A DNA stretch of 64,000 nucleotides from Anaerolineae bacterium (GTDB taxonomy: Bacteria > Chloroflexota > Anaerolineae > CG2-30-64-16): NCBI GenBank assembly GCA_034434235.1, contig DAOTZV010000129.1, forward strand, positions 24,284 to 88,283, written 5' to 3'. A model generated the notes under the pieces. It was not told where the DNA came from, made no database searches, and saw only the letters and a program-made list of their open reading frames with translations. The translations under genes were made by a program, and so were the position numbers. This document shows positions 2,157-24,380 of this stretch, in pieces. Position 1 is the stretch's first letter. Each line of letters begins with the position of its first letter.

Positions 2157-2177
2157 TGATGGCGGTTCATTTGACCT

Positions 2178-3725
2178 ATGGCTGTTGAACGACTTCAGAA
2201 GATCCTGGCGCAGGCCGGCCTGGGCTCTCGCCGCGCGTGCGAAGAGCTGATCACGGCCGGCCGCGTGAAGGTGGATGGCCGCGTGGTGGCCGAGCTGGGC
2301 GCGAAGGTGGACGCCGCCGTGGCCGAGATCACGGTGGACGACCGGCCCGTCCGACGGCAAGCCCTGCGCTACGTCATGTTGCACAAGCCGGCGGGCTACC
2401 TGTCCACGACGGACCCCCGCGCGGCCTATCCCTCTTGGGAAGAGCTGGTGCACACGCCCGAGCGCCTCTTTCCGGTCGGCCGGCTCGATCACGACAGCGA
2501 AGGGTTGCTGCTGCTGACGAACGACGGCGAGCTGGCCCAGCGCCTGTTGCATCCGAAGTACGAGCACCCCAAGACGTACCTGGTGCAGGTGGCCGGCGTG
2601 CCCACCCCGCGCAAGATCCGGCGCCTGCAACACGGCGTGATGCTGGACGACGGCCCGACCGCGCCGGCCGACGTCGAGCTGTTGCGCGAGCCGCCCCCCG
2701 GGTTTCGCTCCGCTGCTTCCGACGTCGGCCGGGGAGGAGCCGAGGCGCGGCCCACCCGCTGGCTCCAGGTGACCCTTTACGAGGGGCGCAAGCGCCAGTT
2801 GCGGCGCATGGTCGCGCTGCTCGGCCATCCGGCGTTGCGGGTCATCCGCATCGGCCTGGGACCGTTGCTCCTGGGCGATCTGCCGCCCGGCCACTGGCGC
2901 GATCTCACGCCGGACGAAGTGCGCGCCCTCCAGGAGGCGGCCCGTCGCGCCCGGCCGGAGGCGCCGGCCACATCACCCAAGAGCGAAAGGAAGAAACAGT
3001 CATTGTTGCCTGCAACGATTGCCATAGACGGCCCGGCCGCCTCGGGCAAGAGCACCATCGGCGGCCGGCTGGCCAGAAAGTACGGCTATCTCTATCTCGA
3101 CACGGGCGTGATGTATCGCGCGGTGGCGGCCGCGGCCCTGGCCCGCGGCATCCCCATCGCCGATGAAGCGGCCGTCACCGCGCTGGCGCGACGGATCGCC
3201 ATCCAGGTTTTGTCGCCCACCGTGGCCGATGGCCGCGATGTGACCGTGCTGGTGGACGGCGAGGACTTCAGTTGGGAGATCCGCAAGCCCGAAGTCGAGC
3301 GCGTGGTGTCGCCCGTGTCGGCCTATGAGGGCGTGCGCGAAGCCATGGTGCAACAACAGCGGCGCATCGCGCGGCAGGGCCCCGTGGTCATGGTGGGCCG
3401 CGATATCGGCACGGTCGTCCTGCCCGACGCCGACCTCAAGATCTATCTCGACGCGACCTTGCGCGAGCGCGCGAACCGGCGCTATCGCGAGCGGCTGGCG
3501 CGCGGGGAGCAGGCCGATTTCGAGCAGATCCTGGCCGACCTGCGCCGTCGCGACGAGATAGATTCGGGCCGCAAGCATTCGCCGCTGATGCCGGCGCCGG
3601 ATGCGATCATGATAGATAGCACGAACCTGTCCATTGACGAGGTCATGGAGCGGGTCGAGGCCCTGGTGGCGCGTTGGGTTGCCGCCCACGCCGATGGAGC
3701 AGAGCAGCACCATGGCAAAGCGTAG
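2178..3725 (+). CDS. Fusion protein: N-terminal RsuA/RluB-type pseudouridine synthase (S4 domain) plus C-terminal cytidylate kinase
   Basis: One uninterrupted 515-aa ORF. The N-terminus has S4-like LGSRRACEELITAGRVKVDGRVV and the RluB core HDSEGLLLLTNDGELAQRL. After residue ~280 come IAIDGPAASGKST (P-loop), LYLDTGVMYRAVA and the Cmk lid. Confidence 0.8.
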   Translation: MAVERLQKILAQAGLGSRRACEELITAGRVKVDGRVVAELGAKVDAAVAEITVDDRPVRRQALRYVMLHKPAGYLSTTDPRAAYPSWEELVHTPERLFPVGRLDHDSEGLLLLTNDGELAQRLLHPKYEHPKTYLVQVAGVPTPRKIRRLQHGVMLDDGPTAPADVELLREPPPGFRSAASDVGRGGAEARPTRWLQVTLYEGRKRQLRRMVALLGHPALRVIRIGLGPLLLGDLPPGHWRDLTPDEVRALQEAARRARPEAPATSPKSERKKQSLLPATIAIDGPAASGKSTIGGRLARKYGYLYLDTGVMYRAVAAAALARGIPIADEAAVTALARRIAIQVLSPTVADGRDVTVLVDGEDFSWEIRKPEVERVVSPVSAYEGVREAMVQQQRRIARQGPVVMVGRDIGTVVLPDADLKIYLDATLRERANRRYRERLARGEQADFEQILADLRRRDEIDSGRKHSPLMPAPDAIMIDSTNLSIDEVMERVEALVARWVAAHADGAEQHHGKA

Positions 3726-4413
3726 ACGTCGGATCCCGCCCGGGCGCTATTTCTGGGGCCTGGTCCTGCGCTTCTTGATCTGGCTTTTCGTCAGGGTCGA
3801 GATGCGGGGGCTGGAGAACCTCCCGCGGCGCGGTCCCGGCATCATCTATTATAACCACATCCATTGGCTCGACCCGGTCTTGATCAGCGGCAAGCTATCG
3901 CGCTACAACGTCCCTCTCACCAAGATCGAGGCCGCCTCCTGGCCGGTGGTCGGCTTTCTGTTGAAGGGCTATCACGTCATCTTCATCCGCCGCGGCACGG
4001 TGGATCGCCGCGCGTTGACCGCCACCTGGCAGGTGTTGGCCGACGGCGACATCTCCGTCATCTCGCCCGAGGGGACGCGCAGCCCCGACGGGACGCTGAA
4101 GCTGGCCAAAGAGGGGTTGGCCTTTGTCGGCCGCCGCGCGGCCGACGCCTGGTGGATTCCCTGCGCTGTCACCGGCACGCCGAAGTTCCGCTTCTCCATC
4201 CCGCTCATCAAGCGCACGCCGGTGACCCTGACCTTCGGCCGGCCGTTCCGGGTGCGCTGGCCCGAAGCTCAGCCCGAAAGCGCGAGTCGCGAGATGATGC
4301 GCGCGGTCACCGACGAGGCGATGGCCCAGCTTGCCGCGCTCCTGCCGGCCCACATGCGCGGGGACTATGCCGACGCCGATCCATCCCGGCAGCAGTGGAT
4401 CGAGTTTCTGTAA
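3712..4413 (+). CDS. plsC: 1-acyl-sn-glycerol-3-phosphate acyltransferase (PlsC family)
   Basis: HX4D motif NHIHWLDP and PEGTRS motif; N-terminal TM segment; ATG at 3712 overlaps the cmk stop by 14 nt. Confidence 0.8.
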   Translation: MAKRRRRIPPGRYFWGLVLRFLIWLFVRVEMRGLENLPRRGPGIIYYNHIHWLDPVLISGKLSRYNVPLTKIEAASWPVVGFLLKGYHVIFIRRGTVDRRALTATWQVLADGDISVISPEGTRSPDGTLKLAKEGLAFVGRRAADAWWIPCAVTGTPKFRFSIPLIKRTPVTLTFGRPFRVRWPEAQPESASREMMRAVTDEAMAQLAALLPAHMRGDYADADPSRQQWIEFL

Positions 4414-4432
4414 CGTCCGAACAGGGGGTCTC

Positions 4433-6280
4433 ATGTGTGGCATCGTAGGGTATATCGGCCCGCGCAATGCGGCGCAGATCATCATGGACGGCCTGCGCCG
4501 GCTGGAGTATCGGGGCTATGACTCGGCCGGCATCGCCGTGATCCAGGATGGGCGGATTGCCATCCGCCGGGATGTGGGCAAGTTGGGCAACCTGGCCGCC
4601 AGGCTGGAGCAGGCGCCGGTCGCCGGCAACATCGGCATCGGCCATACCCGGTGGGCCACCCACGGCAAGCCCAGCGAACGCAACGCCCACCCCCATGCCG
4701 ACTTCTCGGGCCGGCTGGTGGTGGTGCAGAACGGGATCGTCGAGAACTTTCGCGAGCTGCGCGCCGAACTGGAAGCCGAGGGGATCGAGTTCAAGTCGGA
4801 CACCGACACCGAGGTCATCGCGCACCTGATCGGCCTGTATTGCCGGGAGGGGGCGTCGTTGCCCGCAGCGGTGCGCCGGGCGCTGGCGCATCTGCGCGGG
4901 CCCAGCGCGATCGTCGTCCTCTCGCTCGATCAGCCCGACACGCTGGTCGCGGCCCGGCTGGGCAACGCCGGCGGCGTGACGATCGGCTTCGGCGACGGCG
5001 AGATGTTCATCGCCTCGGACATGCCCGCCATCCTGGAGCACACCCGGCGCATGGCCTTCCTGGAGAACCGCCAGATGGCCGTGGTGACCCGAGAAGGAGC
5101 CACCTTCAGCACCTTCGACGGCCAGCCGTTGCAGCCGGTCGTGCACACCATCCCGTGGGATCCGATCTCGGCGGCCAGGGGCGCGTACAAGCACTTCATG
5201 CAGAAGGAGATCTACGAGCAGGCCAATTCGCTGACCGATACGATTCGCGGCCGGGTAGACCTGGGCGCGGGCGAGGTGTATCTGGAGCAGCTCACCCTGT
5301 CGGCCGAGCAGGCGCGGCGCCTGACCCAGGTGGTCGGCGTGGCGTGCGGCACCTCGTACCATTCGGAGCTGGTGGGCGCGTTCATGTTCGAGCAACTGGC
5401 CCGGCTGCCGGTGCGGGTGGAGTACGCGTCGGAGTTTCGCTATCGCGATCCGGTCATTGACCAAAACACGCTGCTGTTGGCGATCACCCAGTCGGGCGAG
5501 ACGGTGGACACGTTGGCCGCGATGGAGGAGGGGCGCAACAAGGGCGCGCATCTGGCCACGATCGTGAACGTGATCGGCAGCCAGGCGGCGCGCGTCAGCG
5601 ACAGCGTGATCTACATGCACACCGGCCCGGAGATCGGCGTGGCGTCCACCAAGGCGTTCACGGCTTCGCTGGTGGATCAATATCTGCTGGCGGTGCACCT
5701 GGCCGGCCTGCGCGGCACCTTGCCCCCCGAACGGCGCCGCGCGTTGCTCGACGATCTGGCCGCGTTGCCGGCGCTCGTCGGCCGCGTGCTCGAGCCCGAG
5801 ACGCACAAGATCTACGAAGAGCTGGCGCAGCGCTTCTTCCAGTACACCAACTTCCTCTACCTGGGCCGCGGCATCAATTATCCCATCGCGCTGGAAGGCG
5901 CGCTCAAGCTGAAGGAGATCAGCTACATTCACGCGGAGGGGTATCCGGCCGGCGAGATGAAGCACGGGCCGATCGCTCTGATAGACGAGCACATGCCCGT
6001 GGTGGCCATCTGTCCCCAGGACGGCGTCTACGACAAAATGATCAGCCAGATCGAGCAGGTCAAGGCGCGCGGAGGGATCGTCATCGCGGTGGCGACGGAG
6101 GGGGACGATTTCATCCGCACCAAGGCCGATCACGTTTTGACCGTGCCGGCGGCTTCGCCGCTCCTGACGCCGGTGCTGACGGTGATCCCGCTCCAGTTGC
6201 TGGCGTACTACATTGCCGTCCGTCGCGGGGCCGACGTGGATCAGCCGCGCAACCTGGCGAAGAGCGTGACGGTGGAGTAG
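4433..6280 (+). CDS. glmS: Glutamine--fructose-6-phosphate aminotransferase (isomerising)
   Basis: N-terminal MCGIVGYIG with catalytic Cys2 (Ntn amidotransferase), two SIS domains, C-terminal KSVTVE. Confidence 0.95.
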   Translation: MCGIVGYIGPRNAAQIIMDGLRRLEYRGYDSAGIAVIQDGRIAIRRDVGKLGNLAARLEQAPVAGNIGIGHTRWATHGKPSERNAHPHADFSGRLVVVQNGIVENFRELRAELEAEGIEFKSDTDTEVIAHLIGLYCREGASLPAAVRRALAHLRGPSAIVVLSLDQPDTLVAARLGNAGGVTIGFGDGEMFIASDMPAILEHTRRMAFLENRQMAVVTREGATFSTFDGQPLQPVVHTIPWDPISAARGAYKHFMQKEIYEQANSLTDTIRGRVDLGAGEVYLEQLTLSAEQARRLTQVVGVACGTSYHSELVGAFMFEQLARLPVRVEYASEFRYRDPVIDQNTLLLAITQSGETVDTLAAMEEGRNKGAHLATIVNVIGSQAARVSDSVIYMHTGPEIGVASTKAFTASLVDQYLLAVHLAGLRGTLPPERRRALLDDLAALPALVGRVLEPETHKIYEELAQRFFQYTNFLYLGRGINYPIALEGALKLKEISYIHAEGYPAGEMKHGPIALIDEHMPVVAICPQDGVYDKMISQIEQVKARGGIVIAVATEGDDFIRTKADHVLTVPAASPLLTPVLTVIPLQLLAYYIAVRRGADVDQPRNLAKSVTVE

Positions 6281-6316
6281 GCGCACAGGATCCGGTTGAC
6301 GTATCCTCTATAAGCT

Positions 6317-6342
6317 GGGGGACGCCGGTCGCAGACCGGCTG
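6317..6342. repeat. Conserved hairpin element family B (GGGGGACGCCGGTCGCAGACCGGCTG) downstream of glmS
   Basis: A 26-nt identical copy lies at 28209-28234 and a related inverted copy at 59361-59396; the core is a 7-bp stem GCCGGTC/GACCGGC with a 3-nt loop. Confidence 0.55.
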
Positions 6343-6364
6343 GAAGCGGTTCCAATCCTCATAT

Positions 6365-6418
6365 GAACAAGGCCGTCCTGAGCGCTATCGTTGCTCAGGA
6401 CGGCCTTGTTTGTCTTCC
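6365..6418. terminator. Bidirectional intrinsic-terminator-like hairpin between convergent glmS and oppF
   Basis: Perfect 18-bp inverted repeat AACAAGGCCGTCCTGAGC/GCTCAGGACGGCCTTGTT followed by TGTCTTCC. Confidence 0.7.
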
Positions 6419-6434
6419 CCGCCGGCGGCCGGGC

Positions 6435-7445
6435 CTATGTCGGCAGCACGCTCGACAACTGTTCGGACGGCACGGACGGATGGTCTTCGTACCTGTAGCA
6501 CGCCACTGCGTGGTGATCGGCCAGGCGGAAGATCGGCGGCGGGTTCTGGCAAGGGGAAAAGGCGAACGGGCAGCGGGCGAAGAATTTGCAGCCGGTGCCC
6601 TGGTCGTTCAATTCGGATTCCTTCACCTTGATCGCGGTTTCGCCCCAGCGCCGATTGATGTCTGGCCAGGGGATCGAATCGATCAGCAGGCGCGTGTAGG
6701 GGTGTTGCGGGTTCTTGATGATCGTGTCCACATCGCCGGCCTCCATCACCGTGCCGCGATAGAGCACCACGATGGATTTGGCGATGTGGTAGGCCGTGGT
6801 CAGGTCATGGGTGATGTAGATGATGGAGACGCCGTAATCGCGTTGCAGGCCGCGCAACGTCTCCAGAATGGAGGCCCGCAACGAGGCGTCCACCATGGAG
6901 ACCGGCTCGTCGGCCACCAGCAGCTTCGGCCTGAGCACCAGGGCGCGCGCCACGTTGATGCGTTGGCGTTGCCCGCCCGAAAGCTGATGGGGAAACTTGC
7001 CGAGCACATCATCGGGGTGCAGGCCCACCGCCTTCAACGTCTCGTACATCATGCTGCGCACTTCTTTCTTGGATTGCGCCAGCTTGAAGCGGCGGATGGG
7101 CACGGTCAGCAGATGATCCACCGTGTAGAAGGGATTGAACACGGCGAAGGGATCTTGAAAGACCGCCTGCACCTCGCGGCGGAAGGTCATGCGGTCGGCT
7201 CCGCGTAGCTGGCTGATGTCCTGGCCTTTATACAGGATCTGGCCGGATGTCGGCTTGATGAACCCCAGCACCAGCATCGCCAGCGTCGTCTTGCCGCTGC
7301 CGCTTTCTCCTGCCACCGTCAAGATCGTGGGCTTCTCGTCGTCCAGCGTCAGCGAAATATTCGCCAGCGCCGTCGTCGAGATCTTGGAGAGCAGCCCGCG
7401 CGAGTAGACCTTGGTCACATGTCTGAGTTCCAATAATGGCGCCAT
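6435..7445 (-). CDS. oppF: Oligopeptide/dipeptide ABC transporter ATP-binding protein (OppF/DppF-like)
   Basis: Walker A GESGSGKTT, signature LSGGQRQR, Walker B LLVADEP, C-terminal oligopeptide-ABC extension; start MAPLLELRHV. Confidence 0.85.
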   Translation of the reverse strand: MAPLLELRHVTKVYSRGLLSKISTTALANISLTLDDEKPTILTVAGESGSGKTTLAMLVLGFIKPTSGQILYKGQDISQLRGADRMTFRREVQAVFQDPFAVFNPFYTVDHLLTVPIRRFKLAQSKKEVRSMMYETLKAVGLHPDDVLGKFPHQLSGGQRQRINVARALVLRPKLLVADEPVSMVDASLRASILETLRGLQRDYGVSIIYITHDLTTAYHIAKSIVVLYRGTVMEAGDVDTIIKNPQHPYTRLLIDSIPWPDINRRWGETAIKVKESELNDQGTGCKFFARCPFAFSPCQNPPPIFRLADHHAVACYRYEDHPSVPSEQLSSVLPT

Positions 7446-7447
7446 GG

Positions 7448-8413
7448 CTAGACCTTTGTCGAGAAGAGATGGCAGGCGACCGTGCGTTCGCCGGGCAGGG
7501 TGACCAGCGACGGAACGGTGGTGCGGCAGACCTCCATCGCGTGCATGCAACGGGGATGGAATGCGCAGCCGGGGGGCAGCCGCAACAGGGAGGGCGCCAG
7601 GCCCGGAATGCCCTGGAACACGCCTTTGTTATCCAGGCGGGGCAGGCTGTTGATCAACGCCTGCGCGTACGGGTGCTTGGGGTCGGTGAACATATCGCGC
7701 ACCGTGCTCACCTCCATCAGCCGGCCGGCGTACATCACCGCCACCTTGTCCACGAACTGGGCCATCAGCCCCATGTCGTGGCCGATCAGGATCACCGCCG
7801 CGCCGATCTGATTCTTCACCCGGTCGATCGTCTCCATCACCTGGCGCTGCGTCACCACGTCGAGGGCGCTGGTCGGCTCATCGCAGATGATCACCTTGGG
7901 CTTGAGCAGGATGCTGATGGCGATGCACACCCGCTGCTTCATGCCGCCGCTCAGCTCGTGGGCGTACATCTTGAGGACGCTGGGCTTGAGGTCCACCGAC
8001 TCGAGCGCCTGGCGGCAGCGTTCTTCGATCTCCTGCTTGGAGGCCGCGCGATCGTGCGCCCGAATGGCGTCGGCCATCTGCGCGCCGATGCGCGTCACCG
8101 GATTCAGCGAGTTCATGGCGCCCTGCGGGATATAGGCGATCTTGCTCAAGCGCGCCTGCAACATCTCCTGTTCGGAGAGATCCCGCAGATTGATCCCGTC
8201 TACGATCACCTGGCCGCCCTCGATGCGGCCAGGTGGCTTGATCATGCGCATCATGGCCAGCGCCATCGTGCTCTTGCCGGAGCCGGATTCGCCCACCAGG
8301 CCCAACTTCTCGCCCGGATTCAACGAAAACGACACGCCCGCCAGCGCCATGGCCCGGCCGGCGTCGGTGTAGTACGAAACCTGCAGGTCGCGAACTTCGA
8401 GAATCGGTTGCAT
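7448..8413 (-). CDS. oppD: Oligopeptide/dipeptide ABC transporter ATP-binding protein (OppD/DppD-like)
   Basis: GESGSGKST, LSGGMKQRV, VIICDEPTSALD; C-terminal Cys-containing extension (CAFHPRC) typical of OppD; start MQPILEVRDL. Confidence 0.85.
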   Translation of the reverse strand: MQPILEVRDLQVSYYTDAGRAMALAGVSFSLNPGEKLGLVGESGSGKSTMALAMMRMIKPPGRIEGGQVIVDGINLRDLSEQEMLQARLSKIAYIPQGAMNSLNPVTRIGAQMADAIRAHDRAASKQEIEERCRQALESVDLKPSVLKMYAHELSGGMKQRVCIAISILLKPKVIICDEPTSALDVVTQRQVMETIDRVKNQIGAAVILIGHDMGLMAQFVDKVAVMYAGRLMEVSTVRDMFTDPKHPYAQALINSLPRLDNKGVFQGIPGLAPSLLRLPPGCAFHPRCMHAMEVCRTTVPSLVTLPGERTVACHLFSTKV

Positions 8414-14242: not shown

Positions 14243-17200
14243 ATGGGAATTTCAGTGCGCGCTTTGGCAATTGCGGTCATTTCCGCTGTGCTCGTTGTGG
14301 CCGGCGCGGGCGCCCTGGTGTGGGCGACGGGCACACAGGATGGCACCGGCGCAATTGCTGGCGTCGTCTTCTTTGACAAAGATGCCGACGCTGCGCGCGG
14401 ACCGGCCGAAGGCGGACTTGCCGGAGTGACGGTGGAACTGCGCGATGGCGTGACCGGCGGCCAGGCCGTGCATCGCTTTGTGCAAACCGCCTCTGACGGC
14501 TCCTTCAGCTTCGCGGAGCTGAGCGCTGGCGCCTACACGGTCGCCGTCCTCCCGGCCGATCCCTTCACGGCCACGACGACCAGCCCCGTAGCGGTGGTGG
14601 TCGACTCTGCGCCTGTCGTCGGCGTGGATTTCGGCGCCACGCTTCTCCAGACTCTCACCGGCACCGAATTCAACGATCTGAACGGCGATGGCGCCAAGGG
14701 ACCACGCGAGCCGGGCATCGCCGGCTGGCTGATCCAGGTCTTCGACGATGTCAACGGCAACGGCCTGGTCGACATGGGTGAGGCGTTGTTGGGCTCGGCC
14801 GTTAGCGACCACCAGGGAAACTGGAAGGTGTCCGGGCTGTTGCCGGGCCGCCGCGTGGTCGTGCGTCGGCCTCCGGCCGGCGCAGAAGCGATGGCCGATC
14901 CGCTCTCGCTGACGGCCGAGGAGGCCGGCGGCGCCGGCCATCTGTGGAACGGCCGGCCCGAGGCGCGGACGGCGCCTGCCTCTGTCAATGCCGATGCCGC
15001 GGCCTATGTGCCGGGCGAGCTGTTGGTGGGCGTTCAGCCGGGCCTCTCGCTGGCGCGCGTCGCCGAGATCTTCCGGGATCTCGGTCTCGCGATCAGAGAG
15101 CCGTTGGGCGGAGATGCCTATCGGGTGGCGACGACCGAGGACGCGGCCGATGCCGCGCTGGATGCGTTGAAACGCCTGCCCGAGGTGCGTTACGCTGAGC
15201 GCAACGGCCTCGTCAGCGCGCTGCTCACGCCGACCGAGCCGCTCTTCAACGATCCGTTTTACATCTTTGCGCCGCAGACGATCAACGCGCCGACGGCCTG
15301 GGACATCTCCACCGGTTCGCCGGAGGTGATCGTTGCCATCGTGGATTCGGGCATCTCGCTTTCGCATCCTGAGTTTGCCGGTCGTCTGGTTGCCGGCTGG
15401 GACTACGTCAACGGCGACAGCGATCCGTCCGATGACAACGGCCATGGCACACACGTGGCCGGCATCGTGGCCGCAGCCATGAACGGCGAGGGTGTGGTCG
15501 GCATCGCGCCGAACGTCAGGCTGATGCCCGTCAAGATCCTCAACGCATCGAAGACCGCCACCTGGGCCAACACGGCCTTGGGGATCCGCTATGCGGCCGA
15601 CCACGGCGCGAAGGTGATCAACCTGAGCATGGGAGGCACTTCCTACTCGGCCGCGCTTCAGGATGCCATCCGTTACGCCGCCGGCAAGGGGGTCGTCATA
15701 GTCGCTGCTGCGGGCAATCAGGGGAGCAGCGGGCCGTTCTATCCGGCCTATTTCGAGGAGACGATCGCCGTCGGCGCGACGGACGAACACGACGAATATT
15801 GGACGATCTCCAACTATGGCAACTGGGTGGACGTAACGGCGCCCGGCGCCAGCATCTACAGCACCTGGTGGACGGCGGACAACCCCAATACCTATGGCTT
15901 CATGAGCGGGACTTCGATGGCGGCCCCGCACGTCAGCGGCCTGGCCGCCCTTCTGCTTTCGTATCGGCCCCAGCTTTCGGCGGCCGATGTGCGCGCCATC
16001 ATCCAGCAGACCGCGGTGGACAAGGGCGCGGCCGGCTTCGATATTTACTACGGTTGGGGCCGCATTGACGCAGGCGCGGCCATGACACTGGCGACGACCT
16101 GGATCCCCTACACTCCCACGCCGACGGCCACGGCGACGGCCACGCCGTCGGCCACGCCGACAGCGACGCCAACGAATACACCGACACCGACGTCGACGAA
16201 TACGCCGACAGCGACGCCAACGAATACACCGACACCGACGGCAACGAATACGCCGACGCCCACGCCGACCGCCACGCCGACGGCAGTGCCGTATCTGAAG
16301 CGGGTCAACGCGGGCGGGGCGAGCTTCACCGACAGCCTGGGCCAGGTGTGGGATCCGGATCAGGCGTATGCGACCGGTGGCTGGGGCTATGTGAGCGGCA
16401 CGGCCAAATCCTCGACCACTGCGGTGAACGGCACGGTGGACGACCTGCTCTACCAGAAGTACCGCGAGGGGATGACCGCATATCAATTCACGGTGCCGAA
16501 CGGTCAGTACCAGGTGACGCTCAAATTCGCCGAGTTCGCCGCCAGCAGTTCGAAGCAGCGCATCATGAAGATCACGATCGAGGGCGTGGTGGTGGAAAGC
16601 GCGCTCAACGTGCTGGCGTTGGCCGGCAAGGCCACGGCTTTCGATCGCACCTACACGACGACGGTGGCCGACGGCATACTGAACATCGCCTTTGCGCAGA
16701 ACGGCGGCAGCTACAAGCCGATGGTGTCGGCCATCGAAGTGAAAAGCGCCGAGGCCGGGCCGACCGGCACGGGCACCGAGCCGACGCCGATAGCAACAAA
16801 TGTGCCGATCGCAACGGCAACGAATACGCCGACCCCGACGCCGACGCCAACCCGGCCGGCCTACAGCGTGCGCGTGGACGCGGGTGGCCCGACCTTTACC
16901 GATGGCCAGGGGCTCACCTGGCAGGCCGACCAGGCCTTCAGCGCGGGGTCGTGGGGCTACATCGGTGGGTCGCCCGGCTCCTCGACGGTCGCAGTGGCCG
17001 GCACGAAGGACGACCTGCTGTTCCAGAAGTACCGACAGGGGATGTCGGAGTTCAGGTTCACGGTGCCGAACGGCAGCTATCAGGTGCAGTTGCGGTTCGC
17101 CGAGTTCGCGGCCACCGGGCCGGGCCAGCGGGTGATGGAGATCACCCTGGAAGGGACGCCGGTGGAGAGCGCGTTGGACGTGTATGCGGCGGCCGGCGGC

Positions 17201-17320
17201 GCGGCCAGGGCGCTGGACAGGACTTACCAGGTGACGGTGAACGACGGCATCCTGAACATCGGCTTTGCTCAGGTCGGGGGCGCCCTGCCGCCAATGGTGT
17301 CGGCTATCGAAATTAAATAG
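14243..17320 (+). CDS. Secreted S8 (subtilisin-like) serine peptidase with N-terminal carboxypeptidase-regulatory-like domains, a Pro/Thr linker and two C-terminal malectin-like carbohydrate-binding domains
   Basis: Signal peptide; catalytic triad motifs AIVDSGI (Asp), HGTHVAGI (His) and [11 protein letters not shown] (Ser). PT-rich linker [27 protein letters not shown]. Two copies of a ~150-aa module (YQKYREGM...FAEF...ILNI.FAQ.GG...PMVSAIE[VI]K) resembling malectin/di-glucose-binding domains. Confidence 0.85.
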
Positions 17321-17429
17321 ATAAACTGGTGCAAAACCAGGACTTGATTTGGTGCGAATTTGTGATATGATGAATATAGTGTATCCGGTTCATCCGTCCC
17401 ATTGTCACAGCGCAGGAGAGGATTTTGCC

Positions 17430-19334
17430 ATGAAGCAGATGCGGAGGATGCAGAGCGCGCGACCGGCATGGGGGTTGGTGCTGGTGACGTTGGCCTTGCT
17501 GCTCAGCATGATGCCGGGTGCAGCGGCCGCCAGCAGCCCGGCGGGCAGCGGTTCGGTAGCCGGGGTGGTCTTTTTCGACGCCTACGGAGTTGGCTCGGCC
17601 GCCGGTCGGCCGGGCGTGGCCGGAGCGACGGTGCGGCTTGCCGGGTCGGGCGTGGCTCTGACCGCGGCGACCGATGCGGCCGGCGCCTACCTCTTCGCCG
17701 GGTTGGCGGCCGGCAGCTACACGGTGACGGTCGAGCCGCCGACGGGCTATGTGACGACCACCGCCAGCACTCGCGCGGTCTCGGTGACGGGCAGCCCGTT
17801 GACCGGCGTGGACTTCGGCCTGGCATATCCCATCTCGCTGTGGGGCGTCCTGTGTCAGGACCTCAACGGGGACGGCATGTGCGGTCCGGCCACGGCCGAG
17901 CCGCGCATCGCCGACGCCCTGGTGCAGGTGTTCGACGACGCCAATCGCAACGGATTGATTGACCTGGGCGAAGGCGTCGTGGCCAGCACCACTTCCAGCA
18001 GCAAGGGGCTATATCTCCTGTCCGATCTGCGTCCCGGCAGCCGCAACCTGGTCGTCCGCCTGCCGGGCGGCGCGGAGAGCAACAGCGAACCGCTGGTGTT
18101 GGAAAGCGACGAAGCGGGCGCCACGAGCTTCGAGTACAATATGGCCATCGGCCGGGCCACCCTTCAGGGGGTTGTCTTCAACGATGTGAACGGCGACGAA
18201 TTCCCGGATGCAACTGAGCCGCGCATCCGCGGCGCGGTCGTCCAGCTCCTGGCCGCCGCGTCGGGCCAGGTGGTGACGCCCATCACCGTGGTTGCCACGG
18301 CCACCACCGGCGCGGATGGCCGGTACGTGTTCGCCGATGTGCTGGCCGCCACCTATCAGGTGCGGGTCTATTCGGCGCCCGTGCCGCCCGCCTGGTGGCA
18401 AAGCTCCGATCCCTCGGCGCTCCTCCGCACCTTGCCGGCCGGCGTGACCACCACGCTGGACATCGGCTTCTTCGACCCCGCGGCGGCGCCGCCGATGAGC
18501 GTGGCCGATTGGAAGCGCGAGCTGCGCCAGGCCGATCAGTGGGCCTATACCGCGAGCGAAGTCGCGACCTTCAGCGCGGCGGCCGAAGAGATCTCGCGCG
18601 TGTTCTCCGAGACCGTGGCCTTGCGCAATGCGCTCCTGTTGGGCGGCGCGACGGGGATCTCGGGAGCCCAATGGCGGGCTTTGAAGGAGCATGCGGCGCT
18701 CTCGTTGAACATCGCCAGCGGCCGGCTGCGACCCGAGACGATCGTCAACCTGGGTACGCTCTCCACCGCCACCACGGTGCGTCAGGCGCGCGATCAGATC
18801 GAGGCGCTTTTGTTGGCGCCATCGTCGTCTGACGACGACTTCGGGTTGGCGTTTGCCATCGCCCGGTCGCTCAACACGGCCCAGGGGGTGGGGGCGGGAC
18901 GCATGGGCCTGTCGGCCGTCATTGACGCCGTCTATCGCGGCGCGCAGGTGGCGAGCAAGCTCAGGCCCGGCGGCGACATCGTGGATCTGAGGGCCGATGG
19001 GCTGTTGACCCTGCGCAAGTGGAGTGCCGGCTCTTACGGCGCCACGACGAACACGTTGATGCCCAGGATCCGCCTGCGGGTGAAATCGTTCAACGAGGGG
19101 GGCGTCCTCGACGTCGTCCAGGTCTTCCCCGATGGCCGGCGCCTGAAGCTCGGCACCCTGCAGTCGGCGGTGCAGAACCGGGACGTGAACAAGGTCTATC
19201 AGCTCGATCTTGCCCGTGTGACGACGGTCGCCGAGATGGTCAATGCGACCATCGTCTTGACGGTGCGCGATGTGAACGGCGGCAAGCCCGCCTCGGTCAA
19301 GCTGGATAGCGCGGAGATCATTTTCGGCTATTAG
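17430..19334 (+). CDS. Secreted hypothetical protein; N-terminal carboxypeptidase-regulatory-like repeats and an uncharacterised C-terminal domain
   Basis: Signal peptide MKQMRRMQSARPAWGLVLVTLALLLSMMPGAAAA; repeated modules (GVVFFDAYG..., GVVFNDVNGDEFPD...) paralogous to the N-terminus of the S8 peptidase; no catalytic motifs recognised. Confidence 0.6.
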   Translation: MKQMRRMQSARPAWGLVLVTLALLLSMMPGAAAASSPAGSGSVAGVVFFDAYGVGSAAGRPGVAGATVRLAGSGVALTAATDAAGAYLFAGLAAGSYTVTVEPPTGYVTTTASTRAVSVTGSPLTGVDFGLAYPISLWGVLCQDLNGDGMCGPATAEPRIADALVQVFDDANRNGLIDLGEGVVASTTSSSKGLYLLSDLRPGSRNLVVRLPGGAESNSEPLVLESDEAGATSFEYNMAIGRATLQGVVFNDVNGDEFPDATEPRIRGAVVQLLAAASGQVVTPITVVATATTGADGRYVFADVLAATYQVRVYSAPVPPAWWQSSDPSALLRTLPAGVTTTLDIGFFDPAAAPPMSVADWKRELRQADQWAYTASEVATFSAAAEEISRVFSETVALRNALLLGGATGISGAQWRALKEHAALSLNIASGRLRPETIVNLGTLSTATTVRQARDQIEALLLAPSSSDDDFGLAFAIARSLNTAQGVGAGRMGLSAVIDAVYRGAQVASKLRPGGDIVDLRADGLLTLRKWSAGSYGATTNTLMPRIRLRVKSFNEGGVLDVVQVFPDGRRLKLGTLQSAVQNRDVNKVYQLDLARVTTVAEMVNATIVLTVRDVNGGKPASVKLDSAEIIFGY

Positions 19335-19339
19335 GCGGT

Positions 19340-19500
19340 GTGGGGGCGAGATGAATCTCGCCTTACGTAGCGTAGGGCGAGATTGATCTCGCCCTGGATT
19401 CAATCGGGGTGTGGGGGCGAGATGAATCTCGCCCTACATTCTCGCTGGGACCGGATCGGGACGCCCACATCCTCGGTCGAACAGGATGTGGGCGTCCGTT
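19340..19500. repeat. Array of four hairpins: three copies of GGGCGAGAT-NN-ATCTCGCCC (two preceded by GTGTGG) plus a 15-bp perfect stem
   Basis: Read directly at 19345-19362, 19376-19395 and 19414-19433; the long stem GGACGCCCACATCCT/AGGATGTGGGCGTCC is at 19459-19497. It lies between two same-strand genes. Confidence 0.6.
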
Positions 19501-19529: not shown

Positions 19530-21746
19530 ATGATGAGATGGTTGCAGTTCTTGCGGCAGCGCGCCGTGTCGAGTTGGCTTGCCGGGGCCGTGCTGGCGTG
19601 GGCATGCGTGGGCATGGCAGGAGCCAGTCCGTGGCGCGCCGCCGTCGCAGATTCCTGGACGATCGCGTGTGTAGAGTGCCCACGGAGCTTCGATGCCCTG
19701 ACCGATCGCAGCCTGCGCCTGTTGCCCGATGGCCGGCCGGCCGTCGCTTACGGGGGAGATCATCTCTATTATGCCTGGCGCGTCGATGTCGGCTGGCAGG
19801 TTCAGGTGGTAGATGAGGCGCCGGCCGTCGGCGGGTCGGCGTCGCTGGCGGTGTCGGCCGCCGGCCGGCCGCACATCGCGTATTACGACGCGCTCAACCG
19901 CGACCTGAAGTACGCGCGGATGGAGGCTGACGGCTGGGCCCGCGAGACCGTGGATGCGACGGGAGATGCGGCCGCGGTGGCGGCGTTGGCGTTGGACCGA
20001 TTCGACCGGCCGCACATCGTCTATTACCGGGACAATGGCGACGGAGCATCGCCGCGGCTGGCGTATGCCCGACGGGGCGATTCGGGGTGGGAGTTCGCCG
20101 TGATCGCCGTATTGACTTCCACGGCGCGCTACATTTCGCTGGCGCTGGACGGCGCCGATCGGCCGCACGTGGCCTATTACGACGAGGGGACGCATCACCT
20201 GCGCTATGCCCGGCTGACCGAGGGCGGCTGGGACGTGCAGGCGGTGGACGGCGACGGCGACGTCGGTTCGGGGTGTTCCCTTGCGCTCGACGCGGCCGGC
20301 CACCCGCACATCAGCTATTACGATTACGACACCGTGCGCGGCGCGCTGCGCTATGCCGCGTGGGACGGCGACGCGACGCATCCCTGGCAGATCGCGGTGG
20401 TGGACGACGCGGACGACGTCGGCGGCTACACCTCGCTGGCGCTGGATCGCCTGGGCCGGCCGGTGATCAGCTATCACGATTACACGCACGGCGCGCTCAA
20501 GCTGGCGCGCGGCGCTGCGGCGCTATCGGCCGGCGCATCCGCCTTCTCCTGGCAGATCGAGACCGTCGAGGACGAGGGGGACGTGGGGCTCTACACGTCT
20601 CTGGCGCTCGACGCTGAGGACCGGCCGCATATCCTGCACTTCGATCTGACCCGCCGGGCGATCCGCTACGCGGGGTGGGAAGGAGATCGCTGGCAGTTCG
20701 CGGAGGTGGATCGCGCCGGCCGCGTCGGCGAGTACACCTCTCTGGCGCGGGATGCGGCCGGCATCCTTCACGTCAGTTACTACGACGTGGATGGCGGACA
20801 TCTGAAGCATGCCCATCGGGCCGGCGCGGGCTGGTCGAGCGAAACGGTGGACGATGCGCCGGGCGCGGGCCTTTACACGAGCCTGGCGCTGGATGGAAAC
20901 GGCGCCGGGCACATCAGCTATCAGGACGGCTACGCGTTGGCCCTGAAGTATGCGTTCCAGACGCCGACCGGCTGGCAGACCGTTACGGTGGACGCCGACG
21001 GCGAGGTGGGCGCGCACACGTCCATCGCCGTGGACGCCGCGGGCCGGCCCCACATCAGCTACTACGACGCGACCGCCCAGGCGGTCAAGCACGCGGCCCG
21101 CGGCGAGACCGGCTGGACGGTCGAGACCGTCGAGCGGGTCGGCCCTCCGACCGCTACGGCCCTGGCGGTGGATGCGACCGGTGCGGTACACGTCGCCTAT
21201 TGTGCGGGCGAAACGGCCGGCGTGCTGCACTATGCCGTGCGCAGCGGAGGCGGATGGCAGATCGAGCCGGTCGACGCGGCGGGCGACATGGGCGGCCGCA
21301 TCGCGTTGGCCCTCGATGCCCAGGCCGCGGCCTATATCAGCTACTACGACTTCGCCGGCCGGCGCGTGCTGCTTGCCCATCGCGGGCCGACCGGCTGGGC
21401 GACGGAGGTCGTGGCCGTCGGGGTCGGCGAGAGCCACACGGCGTTGGCCCTGGATCGCGACGCCGCGCCGGCCGTGGCGTTTTACGACAGCGCGGAGGGC
21501 GCTTTGAAGTTCGGCCGCCGGTCGGCTTCGCGCGCGCGGGGCGTGGCCGGCGTTGCCGCGGGGTGGGACGTCGTGACCGTCTACCGCCAGGGGGATGCCG
21601 GCGCATATCCTTCGCTGCAGTTCGACGCCGCCGGCCGGCCCTGGATCAGCTTCTATGACGCGACGAACGGCGACCTCCTGATCGCCCAGGGCCCCGCCAT
21701 CGCGAGGGCGACCTTCCTCCCGCTCTTGTTGCGCAACGCCCGTTGA
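19530..21746 (+). CDS. Secreted repeat protein: about 13 tandem ~48-aa repeats (consensus ...SLALD..GRPHISYYD.....LKYA...GW....VD..GDVG...), probable beta-propeller
   Basis: Signal-peptide-like N-terminus (MMRWLQFLRQRAVSSWLAGAVLAWACVGMAGA); the repeat periodicity is visible in the translation; no family recognised. Confidence 0.6.
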   Translation: MMRWLQFLRQRAVSSWLAGAVLAWACVGMAGASPWRAAVADSWTIACVECPRSFDALTDRSLRLLPDGRPAVAYGGDHLYYAWRVDVGWQVQVVDEAPAVGGSASLAVSAAGRPHIAYYDALNRDLKYARMEADGWARETVDATGDAAAVAALALDRFDRPHIVYYRDNGDGASPRLAYARRGDSGWEFAVIAVLTSTARYISLALDGADRPHVAYYDEGTHHLRYARLTEGGWDVQAVDGDGDVGSGCSLALDAAGHPHISYYDYDTVRGALRYAAWDGDATHPWQIAVVDDADDVGGYTSLALDRLGRPVISYHDYTHGALKLARGAAALSAGASAFSWQIETVEDEGDVGLYTSLALDAEDRPHILHFDLTRRAIRYAGWEGDRWQFAEVDRAGRVGEYTSLARDAAGILHVSYYDVDGGHLKHAHRAGAGWSSETVDDAPGAGLYTSLALDGNGAGHISYQDGYALALKYAFQTPTGWQTVTVDADGEVGAHTSIAVDAAGRPHISYYDATAQAVKHAARGETGWTVETVERVGPPTATALAVDATGAVHVAYCAGETAGVLHYAVRSGGGWQIEPVDAAGDMGGRIALALDAQAAAYISYYDFAGRRVLLAHRGPTGWATEVVAVGVGESHTALALDRDAAPAVAFYDSAEGALKFGRRSASRARGVAGVAAGWDVVTVYRQGDAGAYPSLQFDAAGRPWISFYDATNGDLLIAQGPAIARATFLPLLLRNAR

Positions 21747-21768: not shown

Positions 21769-22959
21769 TTGTCCCACAAGGATGGCGCCATGTTTCGCAC
21801 CGGCCTCGACGTCCTTTTGCACGAGAATCTGGCGCGCGTGGCCGGCCGCCGCGTCGGCCTGATCAGCCACCCGGCGGCCGTCACGGCCGATCTCACTCCG
21901 GCGGTGGATGCGCTTCACGCGGCCGGGGCGAAGCTGGCCGCGCTGTTCGGCATGGAACACGGCTTCGGCGGCGCGATTGCCGACGGCGCGGCCGTGGCCG
22001 ATGCGCTGGACGGCCGGCTGGCGGCGCCGATCTACAGCCTCTATGGCGCGACGCGCGAGCCGACCGCCGCCATGCTCGCCGGATTGGATCTCCTGTTGTT
22101 CGACGTGCAGGATGTCGGCGCGCGTTTTTACACGTTCATCAGCACCCTGTACTACGTGTTGCGCGCGGCCGGCCGCCACGGCATCCCGCTCGTCGTGCTC
22201 GACCGGCCCAACCCCATCGGCGGCGACGCCATCGAGGGGCCGCCGGTCGCGTCGGGGCTGGAGTCGTTCGTCGGCATCGCGTCGATCCCCATCCGCCACG
22301 GGATGACGATGGGCGAGCTGGCGCGCTATTTCAACGCCGCCTTCGGCTTCGGCGCCGACCTGACGGTTGTCTCGATGAGCGGCTGGCGCCGGGCCATGTG
22401 GTTCGACGACACGGGCCGGCCGTGGGTGCCGACCTCGCCGGCCATGCCGCACCTTTCGACCGCGACCGTTTATCCCGGCACGTGCCTGGCCGAGGGCACG
22501 AACCTGTCGGAAGGCCGCGGCACCGCGCTGCCGTTTGAGGTGATCGGCGCGCCGTGGCTCGACGGCCACGCGCTGGCGGCCGCGCTCAATCGGCTCGATC
22601 TGCCGGGAGTGCGCTTCCGGCCGGCCGAATTCGCGCCGTCGGCCGGCAAATACGCCGGCGAGCTGTGTCGCGGGGTCCAGGTGCACGTGACGGACCGTCG
22701 CGCCTTCCGGCCGGTTGCGGCCGGCCTCCACCTGATCGCCGCGTGTCGCCATCAAGCCCCCGACCGTTTCACATTCCTCCCCTCCAGTTGGGAAGGGAAA
22801 CCACCCCACTTCGATCTGTTGATCGGCGATCCCCGCATCCGGCCGGCTCTGCTGTCCGGCACGCCGGTGGAAGCACTGGTCGCATCCTGGGATGTCGACG
22901 CGGCTTTTTGGGCCGAACAACGTCGGCCTTACCTGCTGTACGATATGACGACGGACTGA
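21769..22959 (+). CDS. DUF1343 domain protein (NamZ-like exo-beta-N-acetylmuramidase family)
   Basis: The conserved LLFDVQDVGARFYTFISTLYYVL block and overall ~390-aa architecture match DUF1343. Confidence 0.8.
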   Translation: MSHKDGAMFRTGLDVLLHENLARVAGRRVGLISHPAAVTADLTPAVDALHAAGAKLAALFGMEHGFGGAIADGAAVADALDGRLAAPIYSLYGATREPTAAMLAGLDLLLFDVQDVGARFYTFISTLYYVLRAAGRHGIPLVVLDRPNPIGGDAIEGPPVASGLESFVGIASIPIRHGMTMGELARYFNAAFGFGADLTVVSMSGWRRAMWFDDTGRPWVPTSPAMPHLSTATVYPGTCLAEGTNLSEGRGTALPFEVIGAPWLDGHALAAALNRLDLPGVRFRPAEFAPSAGKYAGELCRGVQVHVTDRRAFRPVAAGLHLIAACRHQAPDRFTFLPSSWEGKPPHFDLLIGDPRIRPALLSGTPVEALVASWDVDAAFWAEQRRPYLLYDMTTD

Positions 22960-23070
22960 TCCGCGTCATACCCTCCAGGCCGAATCTGGCGTAGCATGCT
23001 CTATGCATGAATGCGCATAGAGCAAGAAGTAGCGCATCGGATGGACCTCGCATAGCCAGGAGGTGGCCGG

Positions 23071-23448
23071 ATGTGGCGTCCGCGTGCATGGACTTATCAG
23101 GGTTTATTGGCGGATAACATCGTCCCGCTCGTTCTGCTCGGCAGCAACCTGTTTTTCAACATCCTCGCCAACGCCGGCTTCAAGCTGTCGGCGGCCAGCT
23201 CCGGTTGGCGCGGCTTCCTGGCGTGGCAGGTCGTCGGCAACCTGGCCGGCTTTATCACCGTGTTGACCCTGACCGGCCTGCTGCGCTACCTGCCGCTGCA
23301 CGTCGCCTATCCGATCACCGCCGGGTTGGCCGTGATCGGCGTCCAGGTGGTGGCGGCGCGCTGGCTGTTCGGCGAGGCGATTTCGTCCGGCCAGTGGCTG
23401 GGCACGTTGCTCGTCGCCATCGGGATCGTGCTGGTATCCAGGGGATAA
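23071..23448 (+). CDS. Small DMT-superfamily membrane protein (EamA/ArnE-like, 4 TM)
   Basis: 125 aa with four hydrophobic helices; upstream inverted repeat GCTCTATGC-ATGAAT-GCATAGAGC (22995-23020) may be an operator. Confidence 0.5.
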   Translation: MWRPRAWTYQGLLADNIVPLVLLGSNLFFNILANAGFKLSAASSGWRGFLAWQVVGNLAGFITVLTLTGLLRYLPLHVAYPITAGLAVIGVQVVAARWLFGEAISSGQWLGTLLVAIGIVLVSRG

Positions 23449-23454
23449 AAGACG

Positions 23455-23505
23455 CACGTGCTTTTACGTGCCTGGCACTTCCAAAGCGCCAGGCACGTAA
23501 AAGCC
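23455..23505. repeat. Palindromic element family A (CTTTTACGTGCCTGGCAC-loop-GCCAGGCACGTAAAAG)
   Basis: 16-17-bp perfect stem; near-identical to the element at 45264-45309. Confidence 0.6.
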
Positions 23506-23525
23506 TCTCAAGGATAAACACAGCC

Positions 23526-24380
23526 ATGAAACCCGCGCCTCGAACGAGCCACATCATCGTGACCGCCGACGATTTCGGCCGCTCGCCGGCCATCAACGCG
23601 GCGATCATGCGGGCGCACCGTGAGGGGATCCTCACCGCCGCCAGCCTGATGGTGGCCGGCGACGCCTGGGCCGAGGCGGTCGAGCTGGCGCGCGCCATGC
23701 CCACCCTGGCGGTCGGGCTTCACCTGGTGGTGTCCGGCGGCCGCGCCGTGTTGAGTCCCGGCGAGATCCCCCACCTGGTAGGCCCCGACGGCCTCTTTCC
23801 CGATGATCCGTTGCGCCTGGGCCTGCGCTACACTTTCGACCGCGCCGCACAGAGGGAGCTGGCGGCCGAGATCGCGGCGCAGTTCGCACGCTATGCCGCC
23901 ACGGGCCTGCCGCTTTCGCACGTGGACGGTCACCAGCACCTGCACGTGCATCCGGTCGTGTTCAACCTGTTGTTGTCCCTGGCCAAACAGTATGGCGCGC
24001 ACGGCGTGCGCGTGCCGGCCGACGACCTGATGTTCGCGCTGCGCTACGATCGCCGCGGGGCCGGCGCAAAGATCGGCTGGGCGCTGGGCCTGGGATTGGT
24101 GCTCGGCTGGTGTCGCCGCCGGGCGCGCGCCGGCGGCCTGGCCGTGGCCGATCGGGTGTACGGCGTCTTCCAGAGCGGCCGGATGACGGAGGGGTACGTG
24201 ATGGGTGTGTTGCGTGCGCTCAAGGCCCCTGTGGCCGAGTTCTACTTCCACCCGTCGCTGGAGAGCCTGGGCGAGGCGCTCGGCCCCAACCCCGGCGACC
24301 TGGCGACCCTGCTCAGCCCGGCGGTGCGCCAGGTGATCGAGGCGCGCGGGTTGCGCCTGGCGACATATGCGACCGCGTAA
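23526..24380 (+). CDS. ChbG/YdjC/HpnK-family carbohydrate deacetylase
   Basis: N-terminal IIVTADDFGRSPAINAAI is the hallmark of YdjC-like proteins; catalytic D/H residues (HVDGHQHLH). Confidence 0.75.
   Translation: MKPAPRTSHIIVTADDFGRSPAINAAIMRAHREGILTAASLMVAGDAWAEAVELARAMPTLAVGLHLVVSGGRAVLSPGEIPHLVGPDGLFPDDPLRLGLRYTFDRAAQRELAAEIAAQFARYAATGLPLSHVDGHQHLHVHPVVFNLLLSLAKQYGAHGVRVPADDLMFALRYDRRGAGAKIGWALGLGLVLGWCRRRARAGGLAVADRVYGVFQSGRMTEGYVMGVLRALKAPVAEFYFHPSLESLGEALGPNPGDLATLLSPAVRQVIEARGLRLATYATA

Follow-up and report, generated by a model that had tools for sequence, protein, structure and literature searches.

Beta-propeller repeat proteins are a familiar fold class of bacterial surfaces, and one family among them is very common and uncharacterized. 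We describe a member of that family encoded in a 64,000-nucleotide (nt) stretch of an Anaerolineae bacterium (Chloroflexota; GenBank assembly GCA_034434235.1, contig DAOTZV010000129.1, positions 24,284 to 88,283), hereafter called the window. The gene (19530..21746, plus strand) encodes a secreted protein of 14 tandem repeats that is predicted to fold as a double beta-propeller and that may serve at the cell surface in binding. Its open reading frame (ORF) coincides exactly with the one given in a preliminary description of the locus and is translated without interruption through 738 amino acids (aa) and a stop codon. A Shine-Dalgarno-like GAGG lies 9 nt upstream of the ATG, and a database protein (P0001) is 100% identical to the product, with an identical start.

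A motif scan placed 14 repeat anchors in the protein (aa 70, 114, 161, 212, 259, 311, 366, 413, 460, 507, 553, 601, 647, and 704; spacing, 44 to 57 aa), which gives a tandem unit of ~47 aa. A profile built from the repeats recovered the same number of units (i-Evalue per unit, 7e-17 to 1e-26), set against a top score of 11 bits among 200 shuffled copies of the protein. The tandem repeats of the preliminary description are thus upheld, and its count of about 13 units of ~48 aa is corrected to 14. The signature that it called strict reads as a consensus, since pairwise identity between repeats averages 38% (range, 25 to 58%) and the full RPHI(S/A)YYD...LKYA is spelled out in some repeats only. 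No tandem repeat was found at the DNA level in the gene, so the duplication of the repeats would be old; recent expansion was ruled out on the same ground. The repeat is absent from all other ORFs in the window.

The protein was modeled with AlphaFold2 from a 50-sequence alignment (mean predicted local distance difference test [pLDDT], 90.2; predicted template modeling score, 0.86). The model contains exactly 56 beta-strands, four per repeat, corresponding to 14 four-stranded blades. In a Foldseek search of the PDB, the top matches were the seven-bladed Photorhabdus lectins PLL/PHL (E value, 1e-14; 14% identity), with a template modeling (TM) score of 0.76 when normalized to the target and half of the query covered; the alignment with 8Q81 had a root mean square deviation of 4.2 over 370 columns. 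Full-length alignments were obtained with tandem seven-bladed propellers (DDB1, Elp2, GH74, and Gemin5; TM, 0.40 to 0.55), and further matches included the GH145 propellers BT3686 and BACINT_00347 and a putative neuraminidase. Across 229 relatives, contiguous repeat arrays consisted of 7 repeats (114 arrays), 14 repeats (117 arrays), or 21; exactly 14 repeats were present in 150 of the 229, giant relatives showed patterns such as 7-7-7-7, and the relative at one locus (L014) had one array of seven.

Because the Foldseek matches point to seven-bladed propellers and the arrays of relatives favor 7, 14, or 21 repeats, the model and the counts together indicate 14 blades arranged as two seven-bladed propellers, and a single ring of 13 or 14 blades was dropped in their favor. 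Of the 13-blade-like propeller or solenoid first proposed, the propeller therefore stands, and neither the solenoid nor the blade number does. Repeats 1 to 7 (aa 58 to 396; 19701..20717, plus strand) probably form the first propeller, as judged from the motif scan, AlphaFold2 model, repeat profile, conservation, and repeat counts of relatives. Repeats 8 to 14 (aa 397 to 720; 20718..21689, plus strand) probably form the second, on the same lines of evidence other than conservation. Blade 1 has a conserved motif of its own (AYGGDHLYYAW), and the final repeat is without a W strand.

An extra W strand with a CxxC pair, WTIACVECPRSF (aa 43 to 54; 19656..19691, plus strand), precedes the repeats. 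It is predicted from a model strand at aa 44 to 49 (WTIACV; pLDDT above 90), from a weak match of the W-strand part of the repeat profile to aa 39 to 49 (i-Evalue, 0.24; score, −2.4), and from conservation: it is kept across the family independently of the repeat pattern, with W43, D49, P51, and F54 each 80 to 90% conserved. It could open blade 1 as its first strand, or it could close the last blade as its velcro strand. Within it, the C47/C50 pair recurs as CVECP or CVDCP in many, not all, relatives, and others have IDAP at the same position; the two cysteines may make up a metal site, or a disulfide that would stabilize the protein outside the cell.

The family has very many members. At least 3,954 matches below 1e-5 were returned among the candidates scored in a first search, and when 1.84 billion representative proteins were searched exhaustively, the clusters (50% identity clusters) numbered 22,028 at an E value of ≤1e-3, 15,350 at ≤1e-10, and 5,705 at ≤1e-30, the largest member being 6,384 aa long. 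Named relatives come from Chloroflexota (Anaerolineae and Chloroflexia), Syntrophales, Bacteroidales, Acidobacteriota, “Ca. Eisenbacteria,” Nitrospira, and Verrucomicrobiota. A genome scan with the single protein as the query identified a Chloroflexota metagenome-assembled genome (MAG; locus L006, 83% identity) as the closest genome, and other near relatives were labeled Anaerolineae. Nearly all members are annotated as hypothetical; one (P0015) is named “BNR repeat-containing protein” by NCBI. The protein is an ordinary member of this functionally unstudied family of bacterial surface proteins. A search of the literature on DUF7253/PF23911, a Pfam family faintly matched by relatives over one blade, found nothing, and a paper on the Chloroflexota cell envelope makes no mention of propellers.

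Sequence classification gave one match above threshold. BNR_4 (PF15892) is the propeller of PL25 ulvan lyases, and among curated families it alone is matched above the gathering score (whole-protein score, 65.3 bits versus a gathering score of 27.3; E value, 7e-18). The matching stretches each cover only model positions ~210 to 270 of 272, that is, one blade, and the same one-blade matching was repeated in five relatives. We therefore did not accept BNR_4 as a true domain match, the score being a sum of weak one-blade matches in a protein with no canonical Asp-box. The canonical Asp-box (S/T-x-D-x-G-x-x-W/F/Y) had no match in the blades; the hairpin of this family, L-D-x-x-G-x-P-H-I, occurs in 12 of the 14 repeats and places its Gly one residue further from the Asp. 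The Pfam models of WD40, PQQ, YVTN, Kelch, and Reg_prop gave nothing at an E value of ≤1, so the match to WD40, PQQ, or YVTN that the preliminary description had named as evidence against its reading did not appear. Its phrase “unknown family,” on the other hand, does not survive the passed BNR_4 score (summed over single blades), the BNR name of P0015, and the roughly 22,000 clusters. In the PDB, a single-sequence search found nothing at an E value of ≤1, and a search with the 50-sequence profile returned only a designed TIM barrel, which was rejected as a repeat-against-repeat artifact with poor alignment confidence; neither search found a solved structure related to the family by sequence.

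Conservation bears on whether the protein is an enzyme. The 50-sequence alignment was searched for family-conserved residues that differ from the majority residue of their repeat position. Such off-period residues were confined to the same four positions of the N-terminal strand (W43, D49, P51, and F54), to blade 1 (R60, A73, G75, D77, and Y80), to blade 2 (A104), and to the C-terminal tail (P731). All other conserved segments recur in every blade (G-x-V-G, S-L-A-L-D, P-H-I-S-Y-Y-D, L-K-Y-A, an invariant W, and E-T-V-D), and no blade-specific conserved candidate catalytic residues were seen. Because one catalytic centre should leave blade-specific conservation, a GH74-, GH145-, or PL25-like enzyme is disfavored; judged by this alignment, the protein would be non-catalytic and would serve in binding rather than catalysis.

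A propeller-type carbohydrate-active enzyme (PL25/BNR_4 lyase, GH145 rhamnosidase, GH74 tandem-propeller glucanase, or a sialidase-like protein) acting on envelope or environmental polysaccharide would nonetheless account for the BNR_4 score above its gathering threshold and for the presence of BT3686, BACINT_00347, GH74 tandem propellers, and a putative neuraminidase among the Foldseek matches, and some relatives match the NCBIfam BT3686 rhamnosidase model below threshold. Set against this are the one-blade origin of the BNR_4 score (~210 to 270 of 272), the missing Asp-box, the purely periodic conservation without candidate catalytic residues in any particular blade, and the absence of any sequence match to solved enzymes or, in Pfam, NCBIfam, or the PDB, to a catalytic family. 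Tested for GH74 membership, the protein gave TM scores of 0.43 to 0.47 at 12 to 13% identity, with no sequence match and no blade-specific conserved acidic residues.

The genes downstream could also be counted in favor of an enzyme. NamZ (NamZ_N/NamZ_C; an exo-beta-N-acetylmuramidase) and a YdjC-like protein (21769-24380, same strand as the propeller gene) follow after a gap of 22 nt, which suggests a cell-wall sugar recycling pair, maybe cotranscribed in the window. The preliminary description had taken NamZ as a functional hint. Both genes were rejected as functional partners because they are absent beside every orthologue examined, including the 83%-identical one at L006, where the propeller gene is followed by a 1,264-aa SdrD_B protein and not by NamZ; the conserved partners lie upstream instead. 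We regard the enzyme as improbable.

Secretion, which had been claimed from the start, is supported by the N-terminus. A probable Sec signal peptide (aa 1 to 31; 19530..19622, plus strand) combines a basic N-region, a hydrophobic core (aa 12 to 31), and a likely AGA↓S cleavage motif. The AlphaFold2 model has a helix at aa 2 to 26, followed by a disordered linker at aa 26 to 40 (pLDDT below 50), and a C-terminal tail of lower confidence. Orthologue N-termini share the signal-peptide features.

At the other end, FLPLLLR (aa 729 to 735 of 738; 21714..21734, plus strand) stops three residues before the C-terminus, and its P731 is conserved at 96% across 50 relatives. At least half of the top 120 relatives keep the terminus, ...ATFLPLLLRNAR, in the form x-[YF]-L-P-h-h-h-[RK], and they do so even with PKD or other domains downstream of the propeller. 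FLPLLLR appears to be the positional equivalent (Y to F) of a motif recognized in orthologues by the NCBIfam models NF050076 (sort_motif_YLP) and NF053834 (ultrashort_CTERM), both described as “YLP-box putative sorting motif.” The tails of three orthologues (P0003, P0005, and P0016) and one further relative (P0036) pass the cut-off of at least one of these models, the orthologue tails scoring 12.7 to 15.5 bits versus a cut-off of 10 (NF053834) and 12.6 to 15.6 bits versus a cut-off of 15 (NF050076). The [YF]LPhhh[RK] tail also ends two unrelated secreted proteins at the Chloroflexota loci L007 and L013, and it is found on many secreted Chloroflexota proteins, including ones without the propeller; sites were recorded at L007 (3-851), L013 (minus-strand ORF ending at 5959), and L014 (ORF ending at 4420). 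Within the window, the propeller protein has the only such tail.

Other relatives end differently, in PEP-CTERM (P0020), in CFI-box-CTERM (P0015), or, in some, in a sub-threshold type IX secretion system tail. Since the family thus swaps surface anchors between phyla, the propeller protein is very likely extracellular or surface bound, and we infer that it is exported and then retained at the surface.

Two genes upstream are the conserved partners. The first (14243..17320, plus strand) encodes a secreted S8 peptidase that resembles fervidolysin and has a prodomain of the fervidolysin type; it also carries SdrD_B and CarboxypepD_reg domains, long Thr/Pro-rich linkers, and, at the C-terminus, two malectin (carbohydrate-binding) domains. 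The second (17349..19334, plus strand; likely start, ATG 17430; ~634 to 661 aa, depending on the start codon) encodes an SdrD_B/CarboxypepD_reg protein. With NamZ, these are the neighbors that the preliminary description had listed, and their domains agree with it (Peptidase_S8 with two malectin domains, SdrD_B/CarboxypepD_reg, and NamZ_N/NamZ_C). The model of the SdrD_B protein comprises three immunoglobulin (Ig)-like domains, a helical region of low confidence, and a beta-sandwich at the C-terminus, and no Pfam match was found in its C-terminal half (aa ~350 to 634 of 634, counted from ATG 17430). Its top structural matches are the Bacillus anthracis TIE protein, SdrD B domains, and Gram-positive pilins, so that in the model it resembles the stalks of adhesins and pilins.

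The order S8-malectin, SdrD_B (~660 aa), propeller is kept in orthologues of 58 to 83% identity at six loci (L001 to L006), which come from independent metagenome and MAG assemblies. These loci have a second S8-malectin paralogue upstream, where the window has one, and a 1,264- to 1,286-aa SdrD_B protein downstream. Full-length orthologues of the SdrD_B protein are confined to a narrow clade with a propeller orthologue. The longest contigs of the two sets of orthologues are identical in length, so the two genes presumably share contigs.

Between the SdrD_B and propeller genes, a 195-nt spacer contains three copies of a palindrome, GGGCGAGAT(G/T)(A/G)ATCTCGCCC (19344-19441), and a perfect hairpin with a 15-bp stem (19459-19497). 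The palindrome did not occur in the rest of the window (0.08 expected by chance) or in any of 21 related loci, and Rfam returned for the spacer only a sub-threshold Acido-1 match (22 bits versus a gathering score of 50). Scans for promoters and terminators gave nothing above shuffled controls. The palindromes and hairpin could be elements like repetitive extragenic palindromes or a structure that stabilizes or attenuates the transcript.

Gene fusions strengthen the link between propeller and peptidase. At L007 (Anaerolineales), one ORF of 2,027 aa (1698-7781) comprises a 14-repeat propeller, Peptidase_S8, and fn3; P0163 fuses S8, a PD40 propeller, and the propeller of this family; and P0176 (L022, 4080-8990) comprises, in order, the propeller (aa 68 to 694), an Ig domain, CarboxypepD_reg/SdrD_B (810 to 887), a fervidolysin prodomain, and Peptidase_S8 (1084 to 1343). 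By its domain content, P0176 is a single chain with the core modules of the window’s three genes, minus the malectin domains.

Distant members have unrelated contexts, for instance near HtrA and GerE genes or beside giant surface proteins. Two of their loci (L019 and L020, encoding P0021 and P0102) share a neighborhood, in which an upstream gene encodes a protein of ~411 to 423 aa without a Pfam match and the downstream genes, on the other strand, encode a regulator of the GerE/LuxR type and an HtrA-like trypsin-PDZ protease. Extra domains carried by relatives include SLH, dockerin, PKD, Big_5, and fn3, and their partners include peptidases, a kinase, and cohesin; two relatives carry Peptidase_C11 and one carries a protein kinase domain.

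The fusions could also be read as signs of an extracellular ligand sensor or gate that controls access to, or activation of, the neighboring S8 peptidase. Models for such a role exist in the 14-repeat double propellers of Bacteroides hybrid two-component sensors and in the substrate-filtering propellers of tricorn and prolyl-oligopeptidase-type peptidases. The 14 repeats in two propellers, the relative with a kinase domain, and the S8 and C11 fusions in several relatives (among them P0163, with its second, PD40 propeller) would suit it. The protein itself, however, has no transmembrane or signaling domain and no match to Reg_prop or another sensor family, and the peptidase of the window is a separate protein, with nothing pointing to a defined complex. 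A sensor or gate is, in our judgment, very unlikely.

A structural envelope protein of a filamentous Chloroflexota bacterium, for example, a building block of an S-layer, sheath, or outer layer that self-assembles and does not bind an external ligand, would share the export signals and putative sorting tail. It would also fit the SLH domains found in 3 of 22 multidomain relatives and the Ig-domain, stalk-like surface proteins among the conserved neighbors, and propellers are known from archaeal S-layer proteins. Nothing observed speaks for abundance or self-assembly, however; the gene context varies across the family, and fusions join the module to many unrelated domains (peptidases, kinase, dockerin, and cohesin), a pattern that suits a binding module better than a lattice subunit. 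We think this role unlikely, if less so than either the enzyme or the sensor.

The reading that we prefer, and to which we give somewhat better than an even chance, is that of an exported, surface-retained, non-catalytic double propeller that acts as a binding or scaffold module and works with the upstream subtilase and the Ig-stalk protein. After Sec export, the signal peptide would be removed near aa 31, and the mature protein would fold into two seven-bladed propellers (14 blades, 56 strands), displayed outside the cell as a multivalent binding or scaffold module. FLPLLLR, as a local variant of the putative Chloroflexota YLP-box, probably directs envelope retention or processing. The propeller would most likely cooperate with the fervidolysin-like S8-malectin peptidase and the SdrD_B Ig-stalk protein, supplying a substrate-, glycan-, or envelope-binding surface for the S8 proteolytic system. 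The repeats, the predicted fold, the arrays in multiples of seven, the lack of a blade-specific site, the gene order, and the S8 fusions are direct observations; from them we infer what the ligand may be and that the propeller and the peptidase physically cooperate. A putative cell-surface role in binding or scaffolding is consistent with all of this evidence.

Several points weigh against the binding module. The S8 link holds in a subset only: most relatives have no nearby peptidase, and L007 is the one locus with a clear link among 12 more distant genome loci. The conservation alignment could slip register between repeats and so hide a blade-specific site. The evidence for the arrangement of the two propellers and for the closure of the ring is indirect, and propeller folds resemble one another, so that lectin matches at 14% identity say little on function. 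As to the tail, ATFLPLLLRNAR has F in place of Y and no reported match to NF050076 or NF053834, and the YLP-box is itself “putative,” no paper mentioning the motif having been found in the literature.

The wider interest lies in the family, which comprises tens of thousands of environmental bacterial proteins, some of more than 6,000 aa, built in units of seven blades. The gene order and the S8 fusions yield a testable hypothesis, namely, that a surface protease system has the propeller as its binding subunit, and the locus is a convenient test case for the YLP-box as a putative Chloroflexota sorting signal. If glycan or protein binding by the propeller were established, annotation could follow for many metagenomic surface proteins now called “hypothetical.” More broadly, and as a tentative possibility that we hold at well below an even chance, the “PHISYYD...LKYA” blade may define a separate, widespread family of extracellular propellers, maybe a new class of multivalent modules that bind glycans or polymers and guide secreted S8/C11 peptidases and other surface proteins to their substrates, with display in Chloroflexota by a YLP-box pathway.

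Comparison with known systems places the protein among several propeller groups. The PL25 propeller of BNR_4 and the related GH145 (BT3686) are likewise seven bladed, and they are tied to the protein by the passed gathering score, by GH145 in the Foldseek matches, and by the weak BT3686 matches of relatives; they differ in that only the last blade of the 272-position model is matched, and the protein here would be a tandem double propeller with periodic conservation and no assignable catalytic residues. GH74 xyloglucanases, the DDB1 BPA/BPC propellers, Elp2, and Gemin5 share with the predicted model two seven-bladed propellers per chain, but identity to them is 8 to 13%, their blades are of the WD40 or Asp-box type, and their functions are other. 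YLP-box proteins are alike in having an x-[YF]-L-P-h-h-h-[RK] tail at the extreme C-terminus and a signal-peptide-like N-terminus, and differ in having Y where the window protein has F. The Photorhabdus lectins PLL/PHL (8Q81, 6T96, and 5MXG; PMC6943638) resemble the modeled protein in their seven-bladed propeller with four-stranded, W-motif blades, as well as in near-identical repeats with one well-conserved Trp per blade, and differ in having one propeller rather than two, another repeat motif, and 14% identity without a sequence-level match. Sugars bound by PLL lectins sit between neighboring blades and stack on Trp (PMC6943638). Because the protein described here has an invariant Trp in every blade and malectin domains on its partner peptidase, such between-blade binding offers, by analogy only, a plausible model for how the double propeller might bind multivalently.

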